Source of the DNA: Acidimicrobiia bacterium
GTDB taxonomy: Bacteria; Actinomycetota; Acidimicrobiia; Spongiisociales; UBA5794
Length of the DNA stretch: 64,000 bases
Reading direction: 5' to 3'
Assembly: GCA_024762335.1 (NCBI GenBank)
Contig: JANTHO010000004.1
Coordinates: 5,614 to 69,613 of the forward strand
The notes under the pieces were generated by a model. That model saw nothing but the letters and a program-made list of their open reading frames with translations, ran no database searches and had not been told where the DNA came from. Below, one piece after another: positions 4,647-52,946 of this stretch; positions within the stretch are counted from its first letter, which is position 1; each line of letters opens with the position of its first letter. The position numbers were made by a program, and so were the translations under genes.

Positions 4647-5363
4647 TCAGGTGAGGGCCCGGACGATGAGCCCGACGGCGCCGAGCAGGGACAAACCGAG
4701 CACACCGTTGCGGACGAACTTGTGCGAGATTCGATTCTTGATCCTCAGACTGGTCAAGTATCCGGCGAACAAAGCCGGGAAGAGGATCGTCGCGACACGA
4801 AGATCCGAGAGTGAGATGTACCCCGCAGCGATGCGCGTGCCGAGGGTGATCGTGAGGCCGATGGAGAAGACGGCGGCGAGGTTCGAGCGGACCGTGGGGC
4901 CATCGTCTCCCGAATACAGCAACGCCAGCGGCGGACCGCCGATCGAAGCGATCAGGGACGATGCCCCGGAAAGGACGCCGGCACCGAATTCCGATGCCGG
5001 ATTGCGCGTCACGTGAAAACCGAATGCGACGATCGCCACCGCGACGATGACCGCGCCGGCGATCGCGAGATCGAGCGTCCGCTGGGTCGCCACGGCGAGA
5101 AGTCCGAGACCCAGAATTGCCCCCGGGACCCGCCCACCGACAATCCATGCGATGTTGGACGGCGCGATATGCCGACGTTCTCTCCACGCCATCGTGAGCG
5201 TGAGGGGGATGGTGATGAGCAGTTGAGGGACGGGGGCCAGCGCCGGGTCGATGAGAGCCAGGATCGGAACCGACACCATGGCGAAACCCATCCCGACGAC
5301 CCCTTGGATCATGGCGGCGATGAACGTCACGAGAAGTGCAGCGATGAGAGCCGGGATGGACAT
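4647..5363 (-). CDS. TSUP (TauE/SafE) family membrane exporter
   Basis: IQGVVGMGFAMV and SIGGPPLAL motifs; about 8 TM helices; ATG at 5363 is 7 nt after TATCGT. Confidence 0.88.
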   Translation of the reverse strand: MSIPALIAALLVTFIAAMIQGVVGMGFAMVSVPILALIDPALAPVPQLLITIPLTLTMAWRERRHIAPSNIAWIVGGRVPGAILGLGLLAVATQRTLDLAIAGAVIVAVAIVAFGFHVTRNPASEFGAGVLSGASSLIASIGGPPLALLYSGDDGPTVRSNLAAVFSIGLTITLGTRIAAGYISLSDLRVATILFPALFAGYLTSLRIKNRISHKFVRNGVLGLSLLGAVGLIVRALT

Positions 5364-5525
5364 CCTGTGAACGATAGGGCCGTGCCCTCCCGAAGCATCT
5401 GCTACCGCCGCCCCGCGATCTCGACCAGCCAATGTCGAATCTGGTCGGAGCCAGATCGATTCCGATGGTGAAGAGATTGATGTCTATCGCGCGATCCGAC
5501 AACGCGCACGGCGGCGGGTCGAGAC

Positions 5526-6452
5526 TTAGCCGCGATCGCAGACGTCGGGGGCGAAGATACCAATCACGATCGAATCCGGATTCGTGCCGCCGACCGGCCC
5601 CCAAAGGAGGAGGTTCCCCGAATCGGCCCCGCGCAATTCGAAGATGTCCCCCAACGTGGGATGAACGGAGAACGTGACATCTTCGTTCTCATAGACCTGT
5701 TGCAGGCGCTCGACCGTCTCACCGGCCTTGAAGCCGCTCAATGTTGTGAGGTCCATCGCGGGGGAATCGAGACCGCCGAGGCTGATGTCCTGACGGTACC
5801 CGTTGAAGACCTGGCTCGTTCCGTCGCTTGTCAGAATGACCGCGAACGGGCCGAAGCGGACGATCCGCTCGAGATCGCCGGTGCAGACTCCCCATTGGCC
5901 GGTCGACACCTGCCACGGGATGTCCTCATCCGCCTCGCCGAAGCTCGATACCAACCGGCCGACCGAGATGTCGGCAGGATCGCCAAACTTCAGATCGGGT
6001 ACGTCGTTGATCTGGATACCGATCCGATCGCCCTTGAGCTTCATCTTGTCGACGGGTATGGGGTTCCCGACGGGTGGATAGGGCTTCGAAGGGGGCGTGA
6101 CCACCTCGCTCGTCGTCGATGTGGTTGAAGAATCCCCGGGGACGGTCGTTTCGGTGTCGTCACCGGCGATCGTGGTTGTGGTCGCCTCGGCTTCCGTGGT
6201 CGTGTCGTCGCTCTTGAGAAGTTGGAAGACGGCGACGGAGAGCGCGACGAGGAGGAGGCCGACGACGAGGCCGGTGAGGAGGGGGGATCCGGGTGGGGTT
6301 GCCGGTGGAGTCCGCGGGTCTTCGAGGGGCGGAATCGGATCATCGCCCGACATGTCCGTCAAGTCCGAATACGGGTCGGTCCATCCGGGCGGGTTGCCGT
6401 ACGGGTCTCTCGGGTCGCTCACGTCGTATCGGTCCTCCAGGCGGTTCCCCAT
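5526..6452 (-). CDS. Membrane-anchored protein with Thr-rich linker and uncharacterised external domain (paralog of 8515..9534)
   Basis: Single TM, poly-Thr linker, C-terminal domain ending LLWGPV...GIFAPDVC. Confidence 0.8.
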   Translation of the reverse strand: MGNRLEDRYDVSDPRDPYGNPPGWTDPYSDLTDMSGDDPIPPLEDPRTPPATPPGSPLLTGLVVGLLLVALSVAVFQLLKSDDTTTEAEATTTTIAGDDTETTVPGDSSTTSTTSEVVTPPSKPYPPVGNPIPVDKMKLKGDRIGIQINDVPDLKFGDPADISVGRLVSSFGEADEDIPWQVSTGQWGVCTGDLERIVRFGPFAVILTSDGTSQVFNGYRQDISLGGLDSPAMDLTTLSGFKAGETVERLQQVYENEDVTFSVHPTLGDIFELRGADSGNLLLWGPVGGTNPDSIVIGIFAPDVCDRG

Positions 6453-6482
6453 ATCATACGGGCAACAGAGGCTTGCGTCGTG

Positions 6483-8453
6483 TCAGGAGCGCCCGGTCTT
6501 CGCCGAGATCGACGAACCGGCCTCAGCGTTGCCGTCCTCGAGTAGCGACGGGTAGAACTCCGCCAGCACTTCATCGAAGGGGGTGACCGCTCTCAGGATC
6601 GACTGGCCCGCCTTCGTTCGTCCCAGACGCACCGGCACCACGAGCCGATTGATCGTTGCAACGTCTATGTCGCGAAGACTCCATGCGAGCGAGATCGCGT
6701 CGCTGATGCCGAGACCCTCGTCGACGGTGAACGCGTTCGACAGGTCTTCGATCTTCGCTGCGAGATCCGATGGCGAGTCGAAGTTTCGGAGCTTCTTGGC
6801 CAGTTGGATGAGGACATCCTGCTGATGCTGGTTTCGCATGAGGTCGCCCGCTCCCGGCACGGATCGCCACTTGCCGTCGACCAGTTGCTGCGTGTGACGA
6901 GAACGGACCCAGGCCAGCGCGGTTGCTCCATCTGCGTTGATGCAGCCTCCGGGGATATCGAGGAACGACTTCTTGTCCCGCATCGGATACTCGGTGCAGA
7001 TTTCGACCCCGCCCACACCGTCGATCACCTGGGAGAAGCCGTCGAATGTGAAGATGGCGAAGTTGTCCACCTTGATTCCCGTGAAATCTTCGACCGTGAG
7101 AGCGAGCATCGTGGCGGCGTTGGTGTCGCCGCAATCGCGGAACGTGGCGTTGATTCGGGAGAAGCCGTTCGTGCAGCGGTTCGGAACGTAGAGGTCACGT
7201 GGTAGCGAGACCATGAAGGGTGCAAGACTCTCGTCGGCTGGGAGGACGGTGAGGAGTACCACGTCGGCGAGGTCGGCCGCCTCATCTCCGCCAATGAGGA
7301 GGAAGGAACGATACGCACCTTCGATCGTGGGTGCTGCGACTACGACTTCTTCGAGCGGTGGCGCTTCCGGATCGTCTTCGACGATGTCGGCGACAGGTGG
7401 GATCGAGGTCGACGGTAGGACGGCCGCTGCTTGGGACGTATCGAACGCCTGACGGTCGACCCCCGACCACGACCCGTAGAGATTGAGCCCGGTGAATCCT
7501 GCATAGACGAGTGCGATCGCGACGAACGCTCCGGTGGCACGCTTCGCCATCCGCACGACGGGAAGCCGCCAGAACGATGGGGGCTTGGTTCGATTCTCGA
7601 CGTATCCGATCACGGGGGCTCCCGCGGCGACCAGCCGGTCTCGGGTGTCGATGACCATCGCATCCGTGGCACTGTCGGTGACGACCAGGATCGTCCCGTC
7701 CGCGTGGGCCGCAAGCGGCGCCGTCGCCCCATCCCACGCGATCGGCGGAACGTCGATGAGTACGGTGTCGGCACGCTCTGCGATGCGGTCGATCGATGCC
7801 GCCAGGTCCGGGCCGTCGAGCAAAGTTTCCGGGGCTACCGCTGCAGAACCGGACGGGACGATCGGGAGTGCCGACTCGGGACCGATCTCCCACATGCGAG
7901 CGGCGTCTGCGAGGGATGTCGAACCGTCCGCAAGGTCGGTGAGTCCGGGTTCGGAACCGGTCGAGAGGAACCGGGACACGCCGTGGCCGGACACGTCCCC
8001 GTCGATCAGGGCGACTCTTCGCCCACGCTGTGTGGCGGCAATCGCGAGATTGAGGGCTACGGTCGATGCACCTTCGCCCGGGCCCGGCGACGAGACGAGG
8101 AGCACCTGCCCGCTCGTATGGCCCTCGAGTTCTTCGAGCGTCGTCGCGTACGCGTTGCTCGTGTCCGAATCTGGTTCGGCGATCGTCGGCGCCGGACTTC
8201 CCGCATCGTCCGGGATCGATCCGAGCCGCGGCACACCGAGCAGCCGGGCGAAGTTGGGCGGACCGCCGACCGACCACCAGATCAGCCAGACGATTCCCGT
8301 GACCGACGCCGAAACGATCGCTGATGCGAGTACGCCCCTGTTGGTGTCCCACGCGATGAGCCCGAGGATGAACACGATGACGCCGGCGAGGACGGAAAGA
8401 ACGTTGGGGAGCGAGAAGACCCGACGCCACCATGATGTGTTCGTGGAACTCAA
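6483..8453 (-). CDS. Fusion of CpsD/CapB (BY-kinase-like P-loop) domain and LCP (LytR-CpsA-Psr) domain
   Basis: N-half: LGSIP, VLLVSSPGPGEGAST, RVALIDGD, VLIDVPP. C-half after a TM: SLPRDLYV, RINA, FTFDGFSQVIDGVGGV, ALAWVRSRH, GDLMRNQHQQ. Confidence 0.88.
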   Translation of the reverse strand: MSSTNTSWWRRVFSLPNVLSVLAGVIVFILGLIAWDTNRGVLASAIVSASVTGIVWLIWWSVGGPPNFARLLGVPRLGSIPDDAGSPAPTIAEPDSDTSNAYATTLEELEGHTSGQVLLVSSPGPGEGASTVALNLAIAATQRGRRVALIDGDVSGHGVSRFLSTGSEPGLTDLADGSTSLADAARMWEIGPESALPIVPSGSAAVAPETLLDGPDLAASIDRIAERADTVLIDVPPIAWDGATAPLAAHADGTILVVTDSATDAMVIDTRDRLVAAGAPVIGYVENRTKPPSFWRLPVVRMAKRATGAFVAIALVYAGFTGLNLYGSWSGVDRQAFDTSQAAAVLPSTSIPPVADIVEDDPEAPPLEEVVVAAPTIEGAYRSFLLIGGDEAADLADVVLLTVLPADESLAPFMVSLPRDLYVPNRCTNGFSRINATFRDCGDTNAATMLALTVEDFTGIKVDNFAIFTFDGFSQVIDGVGGVEICTEYPMRDKKSFLDIPGGCINADGATALAWVRSRHTQQLVDGKWRSVPGAGDLMRNQHQQDVLIQLAKKLRNFDSPSDLAAKIEDLSNAFTVDEGLGISDAISLAWSLRDIDVATINRLVVPVRLGRTKAGQSILRAVTPFDEVLAEFYPSLLEDGNAEAGSSISAKTGRS

Positions 8454-8514
8454 CGGTCCCCCCGGGATCGAATACGGATCCGTTCGAGTCTACTTCTGCA
8501 AGCAGGTACCGGAC

Positions 8515-9534
8515 TCAACTCGTGCACACGTCGGGAGCGTAGATGCCCTCGACACGGCCGGAGGGCTCGGTCGACGTGACCGGACCCCACAGGAGGAGAC
8601 CGTCTCCGTCTGCGAGTTGGAAGAGATCGGTGCCGGCGGCAGAGATGTAGTCGACTCTGTATGACTTGTAGATGTCTTCCAGGGTCTTCACCGTGTCCCC
8701 CACCCGAAGACCCGACGGGGTCGACAGATCGAGCTGCATGGTCGGCACCGAAATCGCGTCGAACCGATAGCCAGCGAACGTTCCGTCGGCGATCGTTCCC
8801 GACACGACCGCGGTGAGGCCGTCCCATCGAACGAACCGGCCGTCATCGCCTTCACACAGACCGAGCTCCTCGCCGGCTGCACCCGTCTCACTCGGTTCAC
8901 CGATGCTCGATACGAGACGTCCGAGCGCCTCGTCAGCGGGCTCGCCGAACGCGATGGGGCCGATGCCTCCCGACTTGAGGGTGAGAGAGGAGAGGGGAAT
9001 TGGGTCGCCTACGGATGCGATCGTCCCGGGGGAGGGGATGGTCGTCGATGGCACAGTCGTGCTGGTCGTGGTTGGTGTCGTCGTCGTGGTGGTGGTGGGC
9101 GGTTGCGTCGTGGTGGTGGGGATCGTGGTTGCGGCCGGAATGGTCGTTTCGGGAGCGGCCGTTGTCGCGCCGGTGCCGTCGAGGAACCCAAGGGCGAAGA
9201 GGGCGATCACGATGACGGCGGCGCCGGCGATCAGCACCGGGATGAGCCAGATGAAGTTGCGGCTTTCGTCGGATGCGGTCTCGGGGCCGGTTTCTGGAGG
9301 GGGCTCCGACACTCCCGGGTCTCCTTCGGTCGGGCTCGGCGACGGTACGGGATTCGTCGCGGTCGCTCCTCCGGAGGCGGCAGCGACCCCGGCCATCACG
9401 GGAGCCGCCTGCTCGGCGGGAGCACCGACACGCACATCGATCCACGGGCGCCCGCAATGAGGGCAGCGTGACTCGTCGGCCGGTCGCGCCGTTCCGCAGT
9501 AGATGCACAGGGGAAGATGGGTCGACGTTGACAT
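8515..9534 (-). CDS. Zinc-ribbon + TM + Thr-rich linker + uncharacterised external domain (paralog of 5526..6452)
   Basis: CIYC..CPHC at N-terminus, one TM, poly-Thr, C-terminal LLWGPV...GIYAPDVC; ATG at 9534 is 8 nt after TATCCT. Confidence 0.8.
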   Translation of the reverse strand: MSTSTHLPLCIYCGTARPADESRCPHCGRPWIDVRVGAPAEQAAPVMAGVAAASGGATATNPVPSPSPTEGDPGVSEPPPETGPETASDESRNFIWLIPVLIAGAAVIVIALFALGFLDGTGATTAAPETTIPAATTIPTTTTQPPTTTTTTTPTTTSTTVPSTTIPSPGTIASVGDPIPLSSLTLKSGGIGPIAFGEPADEALGRLVSSIGEPSETGAAGEELGLCEGDDGRFVRWDGLTAVVSGTIADGTFAGYRFDAISVPTMQLDLSTPSGLRVGDTVKTLEDIYKSYRVDYISAAGTDLFQLADGDGLLLWGPVTSTEPSGRVEGIYAPDVCTS

Positions 9535-9672: not shown

Positions 9673-10101
9673 ATGAACGATCAACGATCAGACACGGCAG
9701 ACTGGGTGGTCCCTGCGATTCTCGTGGGTGTCGGTGTCGCGCTGCTCGGTGCATTCATCATCGTGCTCGTCCTGACGGACACCGGACGGGCTCAACCCGA
9801 AGGTCTCGTCGAGGAACTCGATGTGTACACGCGGTGCCTCACTGATCACGGCGCGAACGTGCCGCGTATCGAAACGCGAAGGGATGGAGGATTCTCCGTA
9901 ACGGTGCCGGGGTCGATGATCGAAGAAGGGCTTGACACCGATGCGATACGCGAGGCCTACGACCAGTGTGCCGACGTCGCTCCCGACCTGTTCGGAGGGC
10001 TGGCCGGGCTGCTGACCGACGGCGTGCTCGGTGGCTGGTCGCACGGGATCCCGGGCGGGTTGTTCGACGACGCCATCCAGGAAGTGATCGAAGGCGTCTG
10101 A
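9673..10101 (+). CDS. Hypothetical membrane-anchored protein
   Basis: GGAGG RBS, N-terminal TM, two Cys (CLTDHG, YDQC), normal amino-acid composition. Confidence 0.7.
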   Translation: MNDQRSDTADWVVPAILVGVGVALLGAFIIVLVLTDTGRAQPEGLVEELDVYTRCLTDHGANVPRIETRRDGGFSVTVPGSMIEEGLDTDAIREAYDQCADVAPDLFGGLAGLLTDGVLGGWSHGIPGGLFDDAIQEVIEGV

Positions 10102-10224
10102 TCGAGGCGGCAGGTCGCGATATCGCAATGTGAGCGAGTGCGGTGCTATCCGGCGATCGTCCGTACTCTTGGGGAGACGGAACGAGGCGCCGTCCGACCG
10201 CGGGCGACCTCCGAAGATTCGGGG

Positions 10225-10253
10225 TTCACAAATCGTTCCAGATGTGTGATATT
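10225..10253 (+). promoter_or_regulatory. Possible sigma70-type promoter for the sigma-factor gene
   Basis: TTCACA-17 bp-GATATT in a locally AT-rich patch upstream of ATG 10331. Confidence 0.3.
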
Positions 10254-10330
10254 GAGTTGCTGCTCGGTCTGTGGAGCGCTTCATCGGACCGTGTCGGGTG
10301 CACTGGATGACGTTGGTGGAGGATCACGCG

Positions 10331-11380
10331 ATGACAAACCGCTCGAATTCGAGCAAAGCCGTCCTGAATCGGGCGGCCCGTGAACGTGAGGAAGCGAAGG
10401 AGCGTGTCGATCGTGACACGCTGCAGCGCACACGGCGCGAACGGGACCGTTCGAAGCTCACCGACGAGCGGGGACGTCTCACGACTGATCTCGTCAGCCA
10501 GTATCTGACGGCGATCGGAGAGTACGAGCTGCTGACGGCTGAGAAGGAAGTCGACTACGCCCAGAAGATCGAGAGCGGTCAGACGGCGCAGGATCGGCTC
10601 GACGGCGGCGAGTACAAAGGACGTGCGGAACAGATCGCGCTTCGCCGCCAGGCCAGACGCGGGCAGGAGGCGAAGGATGCGTTCCTCACGGCGAATCTCC
10701 GCCTCGTCGTCGCAAACGCCAGGCGGTATGCGAACACATCGGGAATCGACTTCCTCGATCTCATTCAGGAAGGCAACCTCGGGTTGATTCGCGCCGTCGA
10801 GAAATTCGATTGGCGTAAGGGGTTCAAGTTCTCGACGTATGCGACGTGGTGGATTCGCCAGGCCATCACCCGCGCGATCGCCGACAAGTCTCGGACAGTA
10901 CGAATCCCGGTTCATCTCCACGACACGCTCGCCGCCGTTCGAGCCGCCCAGGCGAGCCTCAAGGCCGAGCTCGGCCGTGATCCGAAACCCGAAGAGATCG
11001 CCGAGGAAGCGGGCGTCGACGTCACGAAGGTCGAGCTCGCGTTGAGCGTCGCCGACACGGTTTCGCTCGAGCAGCCCATCGGCGAAGACGGTGCTCAGCT
11101 CGGCGACTTCATTGAGGATGAAGAGGCCGTCGACCCAGTGCGCGTGACCGAAGAGCTGGACATCGCCAACAGCCTCCGGAAGTCGATCGAGCGTCTCCCG
11201 GAGCGGGAGGGCCGCATCCTCGCGTTGCGATACGGCTTCTACGACGGTGTGCCTCGCACGCTCGAGGAGATCGGCGACGAGTTCAATCTGACCCGTGAGC
11301 GGATTCGTCAGTTGGAGAAACTCGCGCTGTGCCGTCTCCGGCATCCGAGCTTCGGTATCCGCGAACAGGATCTCGTCTGA
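10331..11380 (+). CDS. RpoD-like sigma-70 factor lacking region 1.1 (group 2-type)
   Basis: Region 1.2 VSQYLTAIG; region 2 [46 protein letters not shown]; region 4 [18 protein letters not shown]; GGAGG RBS. Confidence 0.93.
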
Positions 11381-11460
11381 TTCTCTGAGAACCGCATCGA
11401 TCGACATGGGTCCGCCTTCGATGGCTAGCCTTCGATGTGGAACTTCTGGAGGGAGTCCTC

Positions 11461-11829
11461 ATGCGTGTCGAAGCACTCGTCGGCGGGGCATCCGACGTCG
11501 TCGGTCCTGAGACCACCCTCGGCGATGCCGCCGGGGTGTTGATCGCTCGCGGAGTCGGGGCATTGGCGGTCGTGGACGGAAGGAAGTTCGTCGGGATCAT
11601 CACCGACAGAGATCTGGTGAGGGCGATGGCCGACGGGGTCGATCCGGACGAACCGGTGGCTTCATGGATGACCGATGGGCCCGATACGGTCCCACCGGGT
11701 GTGAGCGTTTCGGAAGCCGCCGACTGGCTGCTCGAGACCGGGTACCGGCATCTCCCGGTTGCCGTCGGCGACGAACTGCTCGGGATCGTCGATATCCGCG
11801 ACGTCCTCTGGGCCCTCCGCAAAGCCTAA
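11461..11829 (+). CDS. CBS-domain pair protein
   Basis: GIITDRDL, YRHLPV, GIVDIRDV; GGAGGGAG RBS before ATG 11461. Confidence 0.88.
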   Translation: MRVEALVGGASDVVGPETTLGDAAGVLIARGVGALAVVDGRKFVGIITDRDLVRAMADGVDPDEPVASWMTDGPDTVPPGVSVSEAADWLLETGYRHLPVAVGDELLGIVDIRDVLWALRKA

Positions 11830-11880
11830 CGACACGAACCCAGGGTTCTCTGCGCCCTATATGCGGTCTCGGGCCCGCGG
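11830..11880 (+). repeat. 51-bp dispersed repeat, copy 2 (left inverted repeat of nuclease gene)
   Basis: CGACACGAACCCAGGGTTCTCTGCGCCCTATATGCGGTCTCGGGCCCGCGG, starting immediately after the CBS gene TAA. Confidence 0.95.
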
Positions 11881-11937
11881 TATGGTTGGTCGATCAGACC
11901 TCTAGCTTCGGGGGCCGATTTGTGGCAGCTTGTTGCC

Positions 11938-12870
11938 ATGAATCCAGATCGAACTGCAGGCACGATCGCCGCTCGACAAGGCGGCGCCATCCGTCCCGAA
12001 CAGGCATTTGCCTGTGGCTTCACACGAGGTCAGATCGACCAGCGCGTCAGGGACGGACGTTGGCGATCGATCGGTCGATTTGGATATCGGGTCATCGAGA
12101 TGCCGGGATCGATGAACCTGGTGCGAGCAGCCGTTGCGACGCTGCCGGATGCCGTGGTGTCTCACGATACGGCGGCCGAGATGCACGGCTTGTCCAAACT
12201 CCGCAGAGGCGTTGCCTCAGTCCTGGTGCACTCGCGTACGACCCATGTCTTTCCGGGGGTGATTGTCCACCGGTGCCACGATCTTCTCGACGAACACTTC
12301 GTCGAGATCGACGGTCTCCCGGTCACGACGGCAGCGCGAACGATCGTTGATCTTGCCCCGTTTCTCACGGCGAGGCACCTCACGGCTGTGCTCGCCTCGG
12401 CTGTGACCGAACAGCACGTCTCCGCAGATGCGGTGCAGAATGTTGTGGGTCAGGTTGCGAGACGCGGCAAGCCCGGCATTCAGAAGATCCGACGGATTCT
12501 CGAGGAACGTGAGCTGGGGCCGAGAGACGGCACGCAGCTTGAGCGCAAAGGGGCCGAGGTGCTTCGGGCCGGCGGCCTGCCTACGCCGCGATTCGAATAT
12601 CCGATCCCCTGGGATCCAACCCGACGATTCGATGCTGCCTACCCGAAAGGGCGTCTCGCTATCGAGTGGGATTCCCGTCGTTGGCACGAACTCGTGGAGG
12701 CGTTCGCCCGTGATCGACAACGGGATCGCGAAGCCATGCTTCACGGATGGAGACTGATCCGGTTCACATGGGTGGATGTCGCCCGGCACCAGCGTGACGT
12801 CGTGGAAACGGTACGACAGTTGCTGCTCGCCGATCCGGCGTCGACGTCACTCTCTCATACCGCGGGCTGA
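11938..12870 (+). CDS. AbiEi-antitoxin-like N-terminus + DUF559/Vsr-like PD-(D/E)xK endonuclease domain protein
   Basis: ARQGGAI..Q...G....I..RV..GRW; VVSHDTAAEMHGL; GLPVTTAARTIVDLA; RFDAAYP..RLAIEWDSRRWH..RDRQRD....GW.LIRFTW. Confidence 0.85.
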   Translation: MNPDRTAGTIAARQGGAIRPEQAFACGFTRGQIDQRVRDGRWRSIGRFGYRVIEMPGSMNLVRAAVATLPDAVVSHDTAAEMHGLSKLRRGVASVLVHSRTTHVFPGVIVHRCHDLLDEHFVEIDGLPVTTAARTIVDLAPFLTARHLTAVLASAVTEQHVSADAVQNVVGQVARRGKPGIQKIRRILEERELGPRDGTQLERKGAEVLRAGGLPTPRFEYPIPWDPTRRFDAAYPKGRLAIEWDSRRWHELVEAFARDRQRDREAMLHGWRLIRFTWVDVARHQRDVVETVRQLLLADPASTSLSHTAG

Positions 12871-12910
12871 CAACGCCATATAGGGCGCAGAGAACCCTGG
12901 GTTCGTGTCG
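12860..12910 (-). repeat. 51-bp dispersed repeat, copy 3 (right inverted repeat of nuclease gene)
   Basis: CCGCGGGCTGACAACGCCATATAGGGCGCAGAGAACCCTGGGTTCGTGTCG. It contains the nuclease TGA stop and abuts the ATPase gene stop at 12911. Confidence 0.95.
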
Positions 12911-15259
12911 TCAGGGCTTGGGGATCCAGACGAGGGCGATATCCGAGATCGCGATGTCGTTCTTCTCGAGACCGATCCCCACCTCTTCGATGACGGCGGC
13001 CTTCTCATCCCACTCGGCGACGAGATCGGCGACCTCCCTCTGGAATTCATCCTGGATCTGCTGATACTCATCGACCTTCTCATCAACTCTCCGGGATGCA
13101 TCGGCTGCTCTTCGTTCAGCCGCCCGGCGCTGCTTCATCGATGTGGTCACGCTGCGTGAACGGCTGCGCCCTGAGAGCAGGTCGAAGACAGCTCCGGCCA
13201 TCATGTCAAGGTCGCCTGCGCTGGCGTCGTGACTCGCCGCTTCGGCTCGCGCCCCGGCCTTGTCGATGGCGGCCTGGATGCGGCGCAATTTCTTCTCATA
13301 GCGGCGTCCGACGGCTTCGGCAGCATCATCTGACTGCTCGTCTGCTTTGAGGCCGCACCGTTCAGCGAAGCTGTCTCGAGACTCTCCGACCCGCGAGTAC
13401 ATCTTCAGCTCGGGGTTCTTGAAGATCATGATCCTTCCGTCGCGATGCAGCCGCTCCTTGAAACCTGCCTCGAGCGACCTCCAATATCCCTTCGAGTCGA
13501 TGCGAACGTCGGGGAGGAGGTGCGGAGCCGGGATGGCGGGATTCTCCGTCAGGTCCCTCGGGTCGTAGTCCACCTCGATCGCTCCCGACGGATCATCGGA
13601 AAGTGGATGGAGCACGGCTTCCCACTCGGCGCTGTAGTCAACTCCGGCACGGACGTCGTCGTAGCGCGCACGGACACGTACCACAGCGGCCGCTTCGAAA
13701 TGGTCCGGGACATTCGACGCCCCCACTGAAGTGGCCCACGACGCTGCCGGATCGAGGTAGAACACCGGGATTCCCTCCGCGACGGGGGGCATGACGGGGA
13801 CCTCCGTGTCTCCGGTCAGAGTGCCCTGGTGAGTCGGGGTTGTGATCGGAGGGACGGTCGATCCGGATGAGGTCTCGCCATTCTCCGTGAGCAATGAGAT
13901 CTGGCTCGTGGTGAGCGGTCCGCGCAGGTACGACATCGCCCACCGTGTCGTGAACACGACGGGCTCTGCATCGTGTGTGTTGTGGAGGAGGAAGGAACGT
14001 TTCGACAGCCCGGAGATCTGGTCGCTCAGCGCAGCGACATCCGCATCCCCTGACGCCGACTCGAGGGCTTCGACGATGCGGGCCTTGTCCCGTTCGGTCT
14101 GGAGTCGCCCGATGCACCACGTCCCGGCGTTCGACATGGCCTTGTAGTCGAGATCGACGGGATTCTGCGTGGAGAGCAGCATGCCGACGCCGAAGGCCCT
14201 CGCCTGCTTCAGCAGCGTCAGGATCGGGCGCTTTGCAGGAGGATTCGCCGTTGGAGGGACGAAGCCGAACACCTCGTCCATGTAGGCCATGGCCCGGAGC
14301 TCACCAGTTCCCTGTTGGCGCCGCATCCAGGTGATCAGCTTCGAGAGCACCAATGTCACGACGAATTGACGTTCCTGCTCCGAGAGGTGCGCGATGTAGA
14401 TGACCGCGGCCTGTGGCTTGCCGTCGCTGTCCCAGAACAGCGACGCGATGTCGATCGGCGCTCCTTCCATCCAGGTGGCGAAACCGGGAGACGCCAGGAG
14501 ACCGTTGAGCTTCATCGCAAGGTCCAGCCGGTCGTCGGGCGGAAAGAACGTGTCCACATCGAACACGCCGAGCTTGCGAATGGGTGGTCGCTGTATCCAA
14601 CCGAGCAGGATGTCGATACCGAGAGACTGGTCGTTTCTCCACGCGTACTCGACGAGGTTGGCGATGAGGATGCTCTCCCGTGAGGAGACGGGGTCTGCGT
14701 CGATGCCGACCATGCCGAGCAACCCGGCGGTGAATCCCTGGATCTCGTCACGCAGCGCTTCGGCATTGTCGCCGAATGGTTCCCCGGGTGCTGCGAGGGA
14801 CCCGATGACGTTGAGTGGCACACCGGCGGTCGAACCGGGTGTGTAGATGGTGATCCCGGCGCGGTCGCGAAGTGCTCTGATGTCATCACCGTCCAGCCCC
14901 CACGTGGCGAGACCGTTGGACCAACGTTCCGCGGTACTTCGTGCTGCTTCGGCGGTCGAACCGGAGCCGTCGGAGACCGAGGACGGATCGATCCACGGTT
15001 CGAAGTCCTCCGGGGCGAGGTTCGGAAAGGTCAGAGCGAGGTTCGTCATGTCGCCCTTGGGATCGAGGATCAGGGAGGGAATGCCGGACCGAAGGGCCTC
15101 TTCGAGGAAGATCACGCCCAGACCGGTCTTGCCCGACCCCGTCATGCCGACGATGACGCCGTGGGTGGTCAAGTCTTTCGAGTCGTACAGCACCCGTTCG
15201 GACGCGACGGGTTCACCCGTCTCAGGATCGACAGGGGCACCGAGGTAGAAGTCACTCAT
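12911..15259 (-). CDS. HerA/FtsK-like P-loop ATPase (DUF87/DUF853-type) with C-terminal coiled coil
   Basis: HGVIVGMTGSGKTG, LILDPKGD, AYMDEVFG, LKQARAFGVG..LSTQNPVDLDYK; ATG is 6 nt after TACCGT. Confidence 0.88.
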   Translation of the reverse strand: MSDFYLGAPVDPETGEPVASERVLYDSKDLTTHGVIVGMTGSGKTGLGVIFLEEALRSGIPSLILDPKGDMTNLALTFPNLAPEDFEPWIDPSSVSDGSGSTAEAARSTAERWSNGLATWGLDGDDIRALRDRAGITIYTPGSTAGVPLNVIGSLAAPGEPFGDNAEALRDEIQGFTAGLLGMVGIDADPVSSRESILIANLVEYAWRNDQSLGIDILLGWIQRPPIRKLGVFDVDTFFPPDDRLDLAMKLNGLLASPGFATWMEGAPIDIASLFWDSDGKPQAAVIYIAHLSEQERQFVVTLVLSKLITWMRRQQGTGELRAMAYMDEVFGFVPPTANPPAKRPILTLLKQARAFGVGMLLSTQNPVDLDYKAMSNAGTWCIGRLQTERDKARIVEALESASGDADVAALSDQISGLSKRSFLLHNTHDAEPVVFTTRWAMSYLRGPLTTSQISLLTENGETSSGSTVPPITTPTHQGTLTGDTEVPVMPPVAEGIPVFYLDPAASWATSVGASNVPDHFEAAAVVRVRARYDDVRAGVDYSAEWEAVLHPLSDDPSGAIEVDYDPRDLTENPAIPAPHLLPDVRIDSKGYWRSLEAGFKERLHRDGRIMIFKNPELKMYSRVGESRDSFAERCGLKADEQSDDAAEAVGRRYEKKLRRIQAAIDKAGARAEAASHDASAGDLDMMAGAVFDLLSGRSRSRSVTTSMKQRRAAERRAADASRRVDEKVDEYQQIQDEFQREVADLVAEWDEKAAVIEEVGIGLEKNDIAISDIALVWIPKP

Positions 15260-46485: not shown

Positions 46486-46645
46486 GCCGTCGCCGGGAAG
46501 CGGCTCTCACGGCTATCCCCTTCGTCCCATAGAAGCAGGGTCCCGGTGCTCCGGCGGGCAGCTGACGTGCCGAACCAGTGGATGTGCCCCGCGGTCGGGT
46601 CCCGATTTGCTTCAGGCATGTATTCGGTCGACCGACAAACAGAGC

Positions 46646-48115
46646 ATGATGCGCTTCTCCGTGATCGTGTTCGTCGTCGCTCTTGCACTCGTCTCCCTGC
46701 CGGCCATTTCCTCCGCCGATGATGGTTCGACGACAGCGACCACGATGGGTACGGCGACGACCACTACCACGACGACAGCGGCTCCCACCACGACGACAAC
46801 CACCACGACGATTGCGCCGCCCCCCGCCGAAGGTGAGAGCCCACCGCCGTCGGTCGACGACTCCGGGGCCGACACATCTAACCCCGCCGTCGAACGCCGG
46901 GTTCCCAAGCACCAGGTCCGCCGGATCAACGTCACCAAGAAGCTCGTCTTCCCCGTCGTAGGGCCGAACTACTACTACCCGGGTTTCGGGGCATGTCGGG
47001 ACAACTGCGAGCGCGAACACCACGGAATCGACATCATGACCTACGGGTGGAAAGGCGTTCCCGTCGTAGCGGCACACGACGGGACGATCCGGAAGGTTCG
47101 CGACGATCGTGACTGGTGCACCGTGGAGGTCACAGCCTCGGACGGCTGGTACACCCGGTACGTCCACCTCAACAACGACACGCCGGGGTACGACGACCAG
47201 GACTACGAGTGCTTGCTGCCGGGGATCGAACCCGGAGCAGAGGTCGAGGCCGGACAGATCATCGGCTGGGTCGGTGACTCAGGGAACGCCGAGTGGACTC
47301 CACCTCACGTTCATTTCGAACTGCGGACACCCAACGGCTACCCGGTCGATCCGTACAAGTCGCTGAAGAAGGCCGAGCGGATCAGCTACCAGCGGGTCGG
47401 GAACGGCGATCCCATCGAGACCGCCGCCGAGATCGCGATCTATTCGTATCGGAACGGTTCCGGCATCGTCAACGTGATGGCAACAACCGACTACGCCTTG
47501 CTCCGAGCCGGTGGCTACGCCGGCCTCGACCTGTCTGGACCGCTCCTGCTGACCGAGCCGGACCGGCTGTCTGAGGCCGCTGCGGCGGCCATCGAGAGAC
47601 TCGCCGCGGACCGGGTGATCACGCTCGGTGACGGTTTGAGCTCCACCGTGATCGAGCAACTCGAGCAGCGGTTCCGGATTGTTGCCGACCAGGAGCTTCC
47701 GCGACGCACAGTCGAATCATCCGTCGAACCGGACACGGGTGAGATTGTGGACAACCCTGCTGCGGCACTTGCTCCGTTTTCGATCGTCGTTGTAGGTGAC
47801 CGCTCCGAGATGCCGGACAACACTGCGGATGATCTGGGTCGAGCAGCGATGGCCATCCCGACGACGATCCTCGACGACACGGAATCGGCCCGTCGGATCG
47901 GCCGGAACACATACCAGGGGCCCGGTCGCCACGGCACCCGATACGTTCTCTACTACCAGACGGGTGATGGCTACACGAAGATCCGCGCCAAGGAAACTCC
48001 GGAGATCCCGCCAGATTATGGAGTGATCGTCGTCGAGGCTCGCAAGGCGTCGGAAGCAACGTTCACGTTCCTCCAGAGCCTTGCCCGTCTTCCCGTCATG
48101 CCGCTCTGGCGCTGA
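46646..48115 (+). CDS. Secreted M23 metallopeptidase with Thr-rich linker and degenerate cell-wall-binding-2-like segment
   Basis: HHGIDI (HxxxD), YVHLN, GWVGDSGNA..TPPHVHFE; then DPIETAAEIA...GPLLLT..DRL...IERL. Confidence 0.82.
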   Translation: MMRFSVIVFVVALALVSLPAISSADDGSTTATTMGTATTTTTTTAAPTTTTTTTTIAPPPAEGESPPPSVDDSGADTSNPAVERRVPKHQVRRINVTKKLVFPVVGPNYYYPGFGACRDNCEREHHGIDIMTYGWKGVPVVAAHDGTIRKVRDDRDWCTVEVTASDGWYTRYVHLNNDTPGYDDQDYECLLPGIEPGAEVEAGQIIGWVGDSGNAEWTPPHVHFELRTPNGYPVDPYKSLKKAERISYQRVGNGDPIETAAEIAIYSYRNGSGIVNVMATTDYALLRAGGYAGLDLSGPLLLTEPDRLSEAAAAAIERLAADRVITLGDGLSSTVIEQLEQRFRIVADQELPRRTVESSVEPDTGEIVDNPAAALAPFSIVVVGDRSEMPDNTADDLGRAAMAIPTTILDDTESARRIGRNTYQGPGRHGTRYVLYYQTGDGYTKIRAKETPEIPPDYGVIVVEARKASEATFTFLQSLARLPVMPLWR

Positions 48116-48358
48116 TCAGTCGCTGCAGAACCGGATGATCTTTTCCTGGGCGGCCTCCATGACCTTCATCTGAAGGCCGTTCAGAGCCCGAGCGAGCGCC
48201 AGATCCTCCCCGATGACCGGAATCGGCTCGTCGGATGGGTTTCTTCGTGCACGGCCCTTCGACTCGAAGTGCTCACCCATGAGGTCGAGCTTCGTCGTGA
48301 CCGTTGTCGTAGAGATGTCTTCTTCGATGGATACATCGATCGTGATGTGCTTCTCCAT
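48116..48358 (-). CDS. DUF1876 (Rv2632c-like, dsRBD-fold) protein
   Basis: G.ARRNPSDEPIPVIGEDLALARAL; GGAGG RBS. Confidence 0.85.
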   Translation of the reverse strand: MEKHITIDVSIEEDISTTTVTTKLDLMGEHFESKGRARRNPSDEPIPVIGEDLALARALNGLQMKVMEAAQEKIIRFCSD

Positions 48359-48447
48359 GCGTTCCTCCACGGTTGCCGTAGCTCAATCGTGCCAGGGGCA
48401 GGTCGACTTGGCTAGGGCCGTTTGCGGAGAACGGGCGAAGCCGGAAG

Positions 48448-49227
48448 TCAGGCGGTCGATTCCGGTGCAGTCACGATCCCGAACGACGGACCCTGCGGGT
48501 CGCTGATGACGGCCATCCGGCCGAACTGCGTGTCCCACGGCTCTCGCGGGATTGTGGCCCCCAGCGTGCGGGCTCGCTCGACCGCTTCGTCGGTGCCGTC
48601 GACGGCGAACCAAACGAACCAGTGCGCGGGCACCTCATCTGGGAGGATTCCGGTGACGTCGTAGATTCCGCCGTTCGACCTGCCTCCAACGGTCACAACG
48701 GTGTACTCGAAATCGTCGAACGTCTGCACGTCGACACCCCAACCGAGAAGGTCTGCGTAGAAGGCCGTCGCCGCGTCGGTGTCTCGACACGCCAATTCGT
48801 TCCACGTCATCGCCCCTGGGACGTTGAACGTTCCGGCGCCGCCGTGCTGCCCCGGTTGCCAGAAGCCAACCGCTGCACCGACCGGGTCGATGATGAACAG
48901 CATCCGCCCGGCATCGGGGACGTCCATGGGTTCCATCAACAGTGTTGCTCCGAGCTCCCGTGCCCTGGCTGCAACCGCGTCGACGTCGTGGACGATCACA
49001 TACGAGGACCACACCGGCGGCTGTCCTGCTTCGATGTCTTCGTCCCGGAGCTGCCCCATGCCCGCAACCGGCTGGTCACCGAGCATGAACATCGTGTATG
49101 GCATGGAGTCCCCGGCCGGTGGCTCGATGGCGGTCCATCCGAACATTCCGGTGTAGAAATCTCTCGCCCGGTCGGTGTCCGGGACTGCAACGTCGGCCCA
49201 GCCGAAGGTGCCGTTGGGCAAGCTCAT
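48448..49227 (-). CDS. Two-domain VOC/glyoxalase protein (Rv0577/CFP32-like)
   Basis: GTFGWADV..FYTGMFGW, WSSY, DPVGA..FWQ, GAMTWNEL, HWFVWF, SDPQG. Confidence 0.88.
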   Translation of the reverse strand: MSLPNGTFGWADVAVPDTDRARDFYTGMFGWTAIEPPAGDSMPYTMFMLGDQPVAGMGQLRDEDIEAGQPPVWSSYVIVHDVDAVAARARELGATLLMEPMDVPDAGRMLFIIDPVGAAVGFWQPGQHGGAGTFNVPGAMTWNELACRDTDAATAFYADLLGWGVDVQTFDDFEYTVVTVGGRSNGGIYDVTGILPDEVPAHWFVWFAVDGTDEAVERARTLGATIPREPWDTQFGRMAVISDPQGPSFGIVTAPESTA

Positions 49228-49323
49228 GTGGTTCTTCTCACTTCCGTCGCCTCCAGTGAGCGTACGCGCGATTTGAATGGTCGGCACGAACTCTTTCGGC
49301 TTTGCGTCCATTGCCGGTACCGT

Positions 49324-50460
49324 ATGGGGATCATGTTCGTCCGGCCGATCCTCCGTTCGTCGATGTTCGTCTCGGTAGCGATGGCGCTGGTCGCGGTCAC
49401 CGTGTTCGTCCAAGCCCCGCAGGCGACGGCGGCTTCGGCTCCCGACTTCTGCAGTTCGGTCGGGGCGTACTCCGAAGCGCGGTACGGCGTGTTGGTCCCC
49501 GGGATGATGCCGGCACAGGATCCCGGAATCATCGCCGACGATCCCGACGCGGAGACGTCTCCGCTCGCTCCGGTCCGCTTCCCCGACGAGACGGGTCTGT
49601 GGGCGGCTTCGGGAATTCACGGCGATGACCTCGTCGTTGCCGTGGCCGAGCCGGAGGCTCGGAACGCCATCTTCACGGACCTCGGACCAGGACGGCACGA
49701 CCGCTCGGTCTCAGACTCGATCGTGCGCCTCTACTGCGGTCTGCTCGGTCGGCATCCAGAAGCCCTCGACCTCGACTATTGGGCCCGCCGGTACTGGAAC
49801 GGTGTGCCGCTCGTCTCAATCGCCGAGGCCTTCACGACGAGCAGCGAGTTCGTCGAACGGTTCGGCGATCCGACCGATGAGGAACTGGTCACACTGCTCT
49901 ACCGGTCGGTTCTCCAACGCGAGCCCCGCGACGGAGCCATCGAACCGTTCAGTGAGCTGCTGCGCTCTGGGGAAATGACCCGTGGCGAGCTCGTTGTTGC
50001 CTTCACGGACTCGCCCGAATTCGTCGCCATGACCGGAACCGTCACTCCCGAGAAGCCACCGCTGCCGTATCCGGCCGTCGGTTCAGGCAGGCGCATCATC
50101 TACGCAAACCGGGAAGCGCGGGTGTGGTTCGTCGACGCCACCGGTGAACTCGTCAAGACTCACCAGGTGTCCGGGAGGCGGGGAGTGCCGACGCCGGATC
50201 GCTACCGGGTGTACTCGAAGTCGCGGCATGCGTGGGCGCCGCACGACAACGTCACGATGGAGTACATGGTGCGATTCGCGAGGGAAGAGTGGCCGTACGG
50301 ATTCCATTCGATTCCAATCCATGAGGATCGTTCACCGTTCCAGACGAAAGAGCAACTCGGGACGTTGCGATCCGGCGGCTGCGTCCGTCAGGACTTCGAC
50401 GACGCCAAGTGGACCTTCGAATGGGCCCACGTCGGCGACCGCGTGATCATGCTGCCGTAA
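49324..50460 (+). CDS. Secreted DUF4214 + L,D-transpeptidase protein
   Basis: RLYCGLLGR.P...DYW, FTTSSEF, LYRSVLQREP, FTDSPEF; catalytic GFHSIP...SGGCVR; start 49324 or 49333. Confidence 0.85.
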   Translation: MGIMFVRPILRSSMFVSVAMALVAVTVFVQAPQATAASAPDFCSSVGAYSEARYGVLVPGMMPAQDPGIIADDPDAETSPLAPVRFPDETGLWAASGIHGDDLVVAVAEPEARNAIFTDLGPGRHDRSVSDSIVRLYCGLLGRHPEALDLDYWARRYWNGVPLVSIAEAFTTSSEFVERFGDPTDEELVTLLYRSVLQREPRDGAIEPFSELLRSGEMTRGELVVAFTDSPEFVAMTGTVTPEKPPLPYPAVGSGRRIIYANREARVWFVDATGELVKTHQVSGRRGVPTPDRYRVYSKSRHAWAPHDNVTMEYMVRFAREEWPYGFHSIPIHEDRSPFQTKEQLGTLRSGGCVRQDFDDAKWTFEWAHVGDRVIMLP

Positions 50461-50472
50461 CGGCGGGCTCTG

Positions 50473-51330
50473 CTACACCACGACGACGTCGGCGAATCCG
50501 GCGGCTCGGAAACGATCTCCGATCGTGACCATCTGATCCGGGCTCGACTCGACGAGATAGTCGAAACCCCTTCGTACCCCGTGTCTTCTGAATCCGATGA
50601 CGACGACGCGCGTCCCGGGGTCGATCGCACGGAGCCACGCGGCGGTCCGATCGACGGTCCCGTCGTCGTCGTTGTATCCCGGCATGATGAGGAGACGTAC
50701 TTCATGGAGTCGACCGATTCCGGCGAGGTGGCGAATCGAGTCGAGAACGGGCATGTTCGACGCCGCCGTGAGCTGGACATGGGTCGCATCATCGAGTGCT
50801 TTGAGGTCGATCATGGCGCCGTCCATCACCGGTGCGAGCCGATCCCAGACGTGCCGAGGCGCCGAACCGTTCGAGTCGATGAATGTCGTGAGATGGGAAA
50901 GCTCCGGGTCGGCCTTCACCGTCGAGAACAGCTCGAAGATGAAATCTGCCTGGAGGGTCGCTTCGCCGCCGGACACGGTGATGCCGGAGATGAACTTCGC
51001 CGTCTCGCGGATCTGTTCGACGAGATCTTCAACGGTGGTCTCATAGGCGAGCGGGGTTGCGTCGAACGGGCAGACGTCGATGCAAACGTCGCAGCTCGTG
51101 CATGTCTCCCGATCGACCACGACGAACGGTCCCGGTTCGATGGTCAAAGCGTCTTCCGGACAAGGCCGGACGCAGAGGCCGCAGTGGTTGCAGTCGGTGA
51201 TCGTGTACGGGTTGTGGCAGCCGGCGCAATCGAAATTGCAGCCCTGTACGAAGATCACGAACCGGTTCCCCGGCCCGTCCACCGTCGAGAAGCGCAGAAC
51301 CTTATTGAGGCGGCCGAGTGTGGTGTTCAC
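50473..51330 (-). CDS. yjjW: YjjW-family glycyl-radical enzyme activating radical-SAM protein
   Basis: FSTVDGPGNRFVIFVQGCNFDCAGCHNP, ferredoxin insert CNHCGLC..C / CTSCDVC..C, ITVSGGEAT, FIDSNG, MIDLK. Confidence 0.9.
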   Translation of the reverse strand: MNTTLGRLNKVLRFSTVDGPGNRFVIFVQGCNFDCAGCHNPYTITDCNHCGLCVRPCPEDALTIEPGPFVVVDRETCTSCDVCIDVCPFDATPLAYETTVEDLVEQIRETAKFISGITVSGGEATLQADFIFELFSTVKADPELSHLTTFIDSNGSAPRHVWDRLAPVMDGAMIDLKALDDATHVQLTAASNMPVLDSIRHLAGIGRLHEVRLLIMPGYNDDDGTVDRTAAWLRAIDPGTRVVVIGFRRHGVRRGFDYLVESSPDQMVTIGDRFRAAGFADVVVV

Positions 51331-52855: not shown

Positions 52856-52946
52856 GCCGCCTCCCGCATGACCCCCATCATATGGGATGGATGTTGACTC
52901 GGCCCCAACTATTCCGCTGTGTTCCACCGCACCTACCATTCTGTCC

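Follow-up and report, generated by a model that had tools for sequence, protein, structure and literature searches.

How bacteria coordinate the synthesis of capsule or wall polymers inside the cell with their ligation outside it is a standing question. In Firmicutes, the machinery of bacterial tyrosine kinases (BY-kinases; CpsC/CpsD, CapA/CapB) and the LytR-CpsA-Psr (LCP) ligase are thought to cooperate as separate proteins, and the contact between them has been hard to pin down. BY pseudokinases were named in 2025. Here we analyze a gene from an Acidimicrobiia bacterium, located in a 64-kb stretch of contig JANTHO010000004.1 (64,000 nt; hereafter the window), that joins a BY-kinase fold without its catalytic residues to an LCP domain in a single chain. 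We refer to this gene and its product as the fusion.

Among described BY pseudokinases, EcpK of Myxococcus xanthus and HfsB of Caulobacter are proposed scaffolds that act by protein-protein contacts, and variants of polysaccharide co-polymerase 2 (PCP-2) with a joined pseudokinase have been listed by Cuthbertson et al. (PMC12004946). The fusion resembles EcpK and HfsB in having a BY fold without catalytic Walker residues or a Tyr-rich tail, and in its basic C-terminal end. However, those two proteins work in Gram-negative Wzx/Wzy pathways, alongside a PCP-2 co-polymerase whose periplasmic domain is large, whereas the fusion has no Wzz/PCP ectodomain and carries an LCP domain as its covalent outer partner. 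EcpK is also without all three Walker motifs, whereas the fusion retains Walker B and part of Walker A and A'.

A second comparison is with Wzc, CapAB and CpsCD. In S. aureus, the BY-kinase activator CapA1 enhances ligation by LcpC (PMC6441080), which provides a precedent for BY-kinase machinery working with an LCP protein. The fusion shares with these systems a kinase fold, predicted to be cytoplasmic, on an anchor of two transmembrane (TM) helices, an LGxPxLGxIP juxtamembrane segment and the functional link to an LCP protein (CpsA, LcpC). In contrast, kinase and LCP are separate genes in the known systems, where an active GK[ST] goes together with DxDxR, a Tyr cluster and a Wzz loop, whereas the fusion is a single polypeptide in which the active site is dead, the Tyr cluster is missing and the loop spans 6 residues, and no polysaccharide genes were found in its 64 kb.

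The LCP half resembles A. oris LcpA (5v8c) in its LCP fold (TM-score 0.76), its catalytic arginines, an actinobacterial insert after a VRSRH motif and conserved Cys residues that suggest disulfides. LcpA itself is anchored by one TM helix and its cytoplasmic tail is short, and the orthologous LCP proteins of two sister families (f3, f52) have one TM helix too; only the family of the window adds a hairpin and a pseudokinase in front. In the literature searched we found no description of a BY pseudokinase joined to an LCP domain without a co-polymerase ectodomain, which is not proof of absence. Both modules are of known kinds; what appears new is their fusion.

Architecture and active site of the fusion

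The open reading frame (ORF) of the fusion is uninterrupted (Table 1); it opens with TTG, and GGGGGGA lies just 5' of the start codon. A preliminary description, made from the DNA letters, had read the product as two N-terminal TM helices with almost no loop between them, a CpsD/CapB-like P-loop domain, and a third TM helix (TM3) followed by a complete LCP domain, and each of these elements was recovered. The hydrophobic stretches of the hairpin are predicted as helices 15-34 and 38-63, separated by WDTNRG, and its residues F28 and W56 are invariant among homologs. In an AlphaFold2 model built from 65 homologs (mean pLDDT 82), the hairpin is followed by a strand and a helix next to the membrane, a Rossmann-like domain over residues 117-289, a long helix at 298-330 and the LCP fold. 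The hydrophobic core of TM3 (KD 1.56) lies within this predicted long helix and is preceded by six K/R and followed by one, a bias that places the LCP domain outside the membrane. We infer the topology, with the kinase fold inside and the LCP domain outside, from this predicted helix and the K/R bias.

For the P-loop part, Pfam returned weak ParA/CbiA/MipZ matches at residues 116-287, whereas NCBIfam ranked TIGR01007 first, followed by EpsG, the XrtA-associated kinase and Wzc; the TIGR01007 score of 75.4 bits is under the curated BY-kinase cutoff of 108.05. In a sequence search of the PDB, BceF (1.5e-17), VpsO, CapA1B1, Wzc and Etk ranked above MinD and FleN. The BY-type P-loop fold was likewise recovered with Foldseek, where the best matches were the CapA1B1 chimera (4jlv; TMt 0.89, rmsd 1.9 Å), BceF (TMt 0.82) and Wzc (3la6; TMt 0.81). 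We therefore rejected a MinD/ParA-type identity, because BY-kinase models, structures and the tree described below all fit better, and because the DxPP Walker B and the juxtamembrane motif are specific to BY-kinases. The juxtamembrane segment is the counterpart of the activator segment of Wzc/CapA: three canonical BY-kinases (P0250, P0262, P0268) begin to align with the fusion at residues 66-69, and the CapA1B1 match is a basis for this assignment as well.

BY-kinases are recognized by a GK that is invariant in 796 of them, by DxDxR, defined as invariant, by DxxP and by a Y cluster (Shi et al., PMC4007543). Three of these four fail in the fusion. We counted motifs in an alignment of 121 homologs. 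Walker A reads GEGAST in place of GK[ST], and Ala129 (codon GCA, nt 8067-8069) aligns with the catalytic Lys of GIGKS in BceF. No homolog has Lys at this position (A 91, P 13, T 6, S 6, Q 5, K 0), so the Lys-to-Ala change, whose conservation in homologs had been set beforehand as the check, is not strain-specific; since GCA is two substitutions from any Lys codon, a single base error does not explain it either. Walker A' has DGDVS for DxDxR, with D151 present in 121/121 and D153 in 111/121 homologs and the last position occupied by A, D, S, E, G or N, never by R. Walker B is retained (DVPP, with D234 in 121/121). As the preliminary description also had it, there is no Tyr cluster: the 20-residue segment that leads from the domain to TM3 (residues 286-305, ENRTKPPSFWRLPVVRMAKR) contains no Tyr in the fusion, none in 110 homologs and one in the other 11. 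A GRR at residues 144-146 is invariant, and since canonical relatives that bear the Lys have it as well, it is not a compensating change.

The domain thus matches the definition of a BY pseudokinase as a BY fold without catalytic residues or a phosphorylatable Tyr tail (PMC12004946). Judged from the alignment, the replacement of Lys is part of an ancestral, clade-wide loss that also took the Arg of Walker A' and the Tyr cluster. The pseudokinase domain has a mean pairwise identity of 0.57, compared with 0.64 in the LCP domain and 0.36 in the extracellular linker, which indicates that the pseudokinase domain is still constrained despite the loss of its catalytic motifs.

The LCP half looks active. 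PF03816 (LytR_cpsA_psr, residues 397-556) scores 90.9 bits against a cutoff of 24.6, and TIGR00350 scores 81.3 bits against 62.3. Foldseek finds the alpha-beta-alpha LCP fold of LcpA (5v8c; E 2.5e-18, TMt 0.76), TagV (6uf3; TMt 0.80) and Cps2A, and pLDDT is about 88-93 across most of the domain. R419 (in SLPRD) aligns with R149 of LcpA, and R540 falls within one residue of its R266; mutation of these two LcpA arginines abolishes activity (PMC6381275). R419 and R540 are invariant in the 121 homologs, as are R517 and R519. D537, Q544 and four Cys (427, 441, 486, 504) are invariant too, and these Cys fit an exported actinobacterial protein.

Table 1. Coordinates of the fusion gene, its parts and the flanking paralogs in the window
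Feature	Residues	Window position	Strand	Basis
Whole fusion gene: TM hairpin, BY-pseudokinase, TM3 and LCP	656 aa plus stop	6483..8453	-	ORF and translation
TM hairpin	13-63	8265..8417	-	Alignment, AlphaFold2 model
Juxtamembrane segment, LGVPRLGSIPDD..SPAPT; strand 76-81, helix 97-112	64-112	8118..8264	-	Alignment, fold match
BY-kinase-fold P-loop domain (pseudokinase)	113-290	7584..8117	-	NCBIfam, PDB, Foldseek
Degenerate Walker A, GPGEGAST	124-131	8061..8084	-	Alignment of homologs
Walker A' remnant, VALIDGDVS		7989..8015	-	Alignment of homologs
Walker B retained, TVLIDVPP (DxxP)		7743..7766	-	Alignment of homologs
Basic stop-transfer stretch and TM3; hydrophobic core 307-325	298-330	7464..7562	-	Prediction
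LCP (LytR-CpsA-Psr) domain	381-636	6546..7313	-	Profile, alignment, fold
'up' paralog: cytoplasmic Zn-ribbon (CxxC..CxxC), one TM, Thr/Pro-rich linker, ~170-aa extracytoplasmic domain		8515..9534	-	ORF, synteny
'down' paralog: Pro-rich cytoplasmic N-terminus, one TM, Thr-rich linker, same ~170-aa domain as 'up'		5526..6452	-	Homologs

Distribution, origin and natural variants

Word-indexed and exhaustive protein searches returned more than 120 full-length homologs of the fusion (48-93% identity) from Acidimicrobiia and from Actinomycetota metagenome bins; those that bear a name are annotated merely as 'LCP family protein', and the hosts are uncultured Acidimicrobiia. A single chain in which a non-catalytic cytoplasmic domain is coupled across the membrane to an LCP domain, as first proposed, agrees with these homologs, which are full length and from which the catalytic motifs are gone. 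Among 301 species genomes of the class, full-length matches were limited to the window's own GTDB family, and the orthologous LCP proteins of sister families aligned only to residues ~304-637 of the fusion. With the kinase-like part alone as query, 17/17 sampled genomes of the family gave a match at no less than 47% identity and 0/284 other Acidimicrobiia genomes did so. The weaker matches (33-36%) were a few canonical Wzz-BY-kinases.

These canonical relatives have a Wzz domain (present in L013a, L013b and L011), GKS/GKT and a YGYGYG tail. Their alignment with the fusion starts at the end of the second hairpin helix (TM2) or in the LGxPxLGxIP segment, and that of one Wzz-BY-kinase starts at residue 48, inside TM2. 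The first hairpin helix (TM1) has a likeness to TM1 of Wzc that is visible by eye (SWWRRVF vs SLWRFKW), which is too short to establish homology; the alignment supports TM2 and the juxtamembrane segment alone.

In a maximum-likelihood tree, the Lys-less domains are all united in a single clade (100/99) with a long stem, and this clade groups with actinobacterial canonical kinases (96/87), apart from BceF, VpsO and CapB1. On the sequences sampled, among which EcpK and HfsB are not included, the tree shows an independent origin of this pseudokinase from actinobacterial Wzz-BY-kinases. Since the Lys-less clade stands beside canonical actinobacterial Wzz-BY-kinases, the module looks like a Wzc-type co-polymerase minus its outer loop. 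No PF02706 match lies between the two hairpin helices, where a PCP-2 protein has its Wzz ectodomain, and the hairpin is best read from its sequence as what remains, TM1 and TM2, of a Wzc-type co-polymerase stripped of its Wzz ectodomain. From these comparisons we conclude that a single ancestral event probably put a Wzc-like co-polymerase without its ectodomain (TM1, TM2 and kinase) before an LCP domain and that, in either order with this step, the catalytic residues appear to have been lost on the stem of the Lys-less clade. The window holds no Wzz-type gene, and tblastn with Wzz-BY-kinases found neither a Wzz-type gene nor a canonical BY-kinase in this 92.9%-complete genome. The pseudokinase domain therefore neither depends nor acts on a canonical BY-kinase partner.

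Two other forms of BY-kinase were observed in related genomes. In the same family, loci L011 (3029-4828, minus strand) and L012 (3093-4910, minus strand) encode Wzz-BY-kinases of ~600 aa with an intact GKT and no C-terminal Tyr cluster, which branch separately and deeply in the tree. In the same genus (G198, locus L013), an LCP gene adjoins two canonical Wzz-BY-kinases: one is an 805-aa protein that joins three parts, namely a PP2C-like phosphatase domain, Wzz and a canonical BY-kinase with a YGYGYG tail (6459-8876, plus strand), and next to it lie the second Wzz-BY-kinase and the divergently transcribed LCP gene.

Nature has also taken the fusion apart. In genus g3, the gene is split into a hairpin-pseudokinase part and a hairpin-TM3-LCP part, with an ATGA overlap in locus L006, and the split copies nest within the fused clade beside a fused member of the same genus (99/93). 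Genome G142 has an extra LCP copy with an internal stop, and the presence of such an interrupted copy in a split genome suggests tandem duplication followed by fission. On contig C4 of G142 (locus L008), the sigma factor, 'up' and pseudokinase genes of contig C1 (locus L007) recur, and the scores are identical; the probable cause is a duplication in the assembly, not a second locus.

On four independent metagenomic contigs, the gene order is 'up', a soluble pseudokinase, 'down' and a polytopic protein, at the same chromosomal position (DsbH-like thioredoxin ... caa3 oxidase), and there is no LCP gene anywhere on these contigs. The soluble pseudokinases are 255-267 aa long, have no TM helix and end in an Arg-rich stretch. 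They nest within the fused clade with moderate support (89/92), and in 3/4 of those sampled the Walker B Asp is lost as well. That the fold is kept after both the catalytic residues and the LCP gene are gone is the strongest argument for a non-enzymatic role tied to the proteins of the cassette.

The conserved cassette and its surroundings

The preliminary description had seen no capsule genes nearby. This holds, as no glycosyltransferase, flippase, polymerase or Wzz gene is found among the called ORFs of the window. The gene is not isolated, however: it lies in a conserved cassette with two paralogous membrane proteins. The cassette order, kept down to 48% identity, is 'up', fusion, 'down' and a polytopic membrane protein, and the fusion gene always stands between the two paralogs. 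In most relatives the fourth gene encodes a polytopic membrane protein of 235-267 aa. In the window's own genome a TauE/SafE-family gene (4647-5432, minus strand) takes its place, and tblastn found no copy of the fourth cassette gene anywhere in the assembly.

'up' is syntenic in loci L001-L007 and L015-L021; its likely start is the ATG at 9534, and the longest ORF reaches 9684. It is 39% identical to 'down' across 180 aa (E 1e-29). Their shared ~170-aa domain ends in LLLWGPV...APDVC and has two invariant Cys; it corresponds to no Pfam family, and Foldseek returned no PDB fold match better than E 0.14, although the outer domain of 'down' is modelled with pLDDT above 93 for residues 121-305. 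A 'YfeY-like' label for the paralogs was not confirmed by Foldseek against the PDB or by Pfam. By secondary structure, the shared domain looks like two repeats of a helix and four strands.

The N-terminus of 'down' carries the motif NPPGWTDPY..PPLEDP..PPATPPGSPLLTGL. This cytoplasmic head (window 6290-6452; NPPGWTDPY..DL..G..PIPPLEDP.TPPATPPGSPLLTGL) is nearly invariant across 46 homologs, with W24, T25 and P27 invariant. Short tails are rarely conserved to this degree, which hints at a docking peptide.

In the cassettes of sister families, the LCP protein is a plain single-TM form and there is no pseudokinase; 'up' is absent from that of f3 and present in that of f52. The cassette is thus older than the pseudokinase. 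Family f52, with 'up', plain LCP and 'down', also rules out the idea that the Zn-ribbon paralog 'up' is confined to pseudokinase genomes. Two paralog copies are present in f1, and one each in f3, f6 and f7. In one f52 genome, the cassette has an insertion between 'up' and the LCP gene, which encodes a bifunctional sulfate adenylyltransferase/APS kinase (L021, 2939-4666).

Beyond 'up', window positions 9673-15259 encode a small membrane protein, an RpoD-like sigma-70 factor (10271-11380), a CBS-pair protein (11437-11829) and a HerA/DUF87-like ATPase (12911-15259). In each of the four loci examined (L001-L004) the sigma-70 gene adjoins the cassette, and in most of them the CBS and HerA-like genes do too, down to 48% identity. 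Farther away, positions 46607-50460 hold genes of cell-wall remodelling, for an M23 peptidase with a Thr-rich 'New_glue'-type N-terminus and for a protein with DUF4214 and a YkuD L,D-transpeptidase domain. At 51302-53305 (minus strand) lies a gene for a YjjI-like glycyl-radical enzyme (672 bits), and the same Acidimicrobiia genome carries genes of a caa3-type oxidase.

Proposed role of the pseudokinase domain

The fusion would be a three-pass membrane protein whose two halves differ in status. On the basis of sequence, structural models and analogy, we consider it fairly probable that it is an active extracytoplasmic ligase with a phosphorylation-independent scaffold in the cytoplasm. On the outside, the LCP phosphotransferase most likely transfers a polyprenyl-pyrophosphate-linked glycopolymer to peptidoglycan, as other LCP proteins do. 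The inner domain would descend from the kinase half of a Wzc-type polysaccharide co-polymerase. Because the Wzz ectodomain has been lost together with the Walker A Lys, the Arg of Walker A' and the Tyr cluster, the autophosphorylation cycle of BY-kinases is impossible. The domain may instead act as a scaffold or adaptor, as proposed for EcpK and HfsB, that ties the ligase to the other members of the four-gene envelope cassette, probably via their conserved cytoplasmic tails.

Several points weigh against this. The binding partners of the pseudokinase domain are themselves inferred, and so is the glycopolymer: the own genome has about seven LCP paralogs, and its one Bac_transf initiating transferase adjoins another LCP gene on a different contig. 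EcpK and HfsB work with a PCP-2 partner that bears a periplasmic domain, and none such was found here. The pseudokinase-free cassettes of f3 and f52 make the module an add-on, not a necessity. Lastly, most fused forms keep the Gly-rich loop, the S/T that follows the lost Lys and the aspartates D151, D153 and D234, a pattern that fits residual Mg-nucleotide binding better than a pure scaffold.

This last point leads to an alternative that we hold to be unlikely, though worth weighing, in which the Lys-less domain is a non-hydrolysing nucleotide-binding switch whose ATP/ADP occupancy gates the outer ligase via TM3 or senses the energy state. The fused forms retain GxGxG-[AST]-[ST]-T along with the aspartates counted above. 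Going by their entry titles, structures of Wzc K540M were moreover deposited with MgADP, so the absence of the Walker A Lys need not by itself prevent binding. However, in 13/121 homologs a Pro occupies the Lys position and the loop is scrambled (SPSGPLAGPSNVPLN is one example), no form retains the Arg of Walker A', and most of the sampled soluble descendants have been kept in the cassette without a Walker B Asp.

It is a good deal less probable that the LCP half acts as a protein glycosylase in the manner of A. oris LcpA, which glycosylates GspA, the product of a neighboring gene (PMC6381275), with the flanking paralogs as its substrates and the pseudokinase recruiting their cytoplasmic tails. 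LcpA (5v8c) is the closest solved LCP protein by both sequence and fold, and the fusion is flanked throughout by paralogs with Thr-rich linkers. Actinobacterial LCPs generally resemble LcpA, which makes this best match weak evidence. The paralogs, moreover, persist in cassettes on contigs without an LCP gene and have no sortase signal, ending in ..APDVCDRG.

That the domain is still an active kinase or ATPase by way of a substitute basic residue is very improbable. Its fold is intact and its Mg-binding aspartates are kept, but it has no Tyr cluster to phosphorylate and no A' Arg, scores under the curated BY-kinase cutoff, and has in its invariant GRR a feature shared with Lys-bearing canonical relatives. 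Artefact or decay, whether a fusion by a missed stop or frameshift or a Lys-to-Ala sequencing error or strain-specific lesion in a dying gene, has practically no standing, as the same frame runs full length in those more than 120 independent proteins from independent assemblies, some on contigs over 1 Mb, with the Lys in no homolog, a codon two substitutions away and a well-conserved domain, while the nearest related observations are the real split in g3 and the stop-bearing extra LCP copy of G142 and otherwise none was found.

Returning to a scaffold beneath an active ligase, we raise a more specific version tentatively, as one that is possible and less likely to be right than wrong. The fusion may be the hub of a four-gene Acidimicrobiia envelope-assembly module, in which the Lys-less fold is a transmembrane coupling device that binds the tails of the paralogs (Zn-ribbon, NPPGWTDPY/Pro-rich motif) or an unhydrolysed nucleotide, and so controls, via the hairpin and TM3, when and where the outer LCP domain ligates. 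If true, this would be a single-chain, phosphorylation-free form of the long-suspected coupling of BY-kinase to LCP.

A natural fusion is Rosetta-stone evidence for joint action of BY-kinase and LCP modules, and it carries the idea of BY-pseudokinase scaffolds beyond Gram-negative co-polymerases, to a wall ligase of Gram-positive type. Together, the natural fused forms, split forms, soluble pseudokinases on LCP-less contigs and LCP proteins without a pseudokinase provide ready constructs for dissecting the dead kinase fold, which would show that the coupling needs no phosphorylation.

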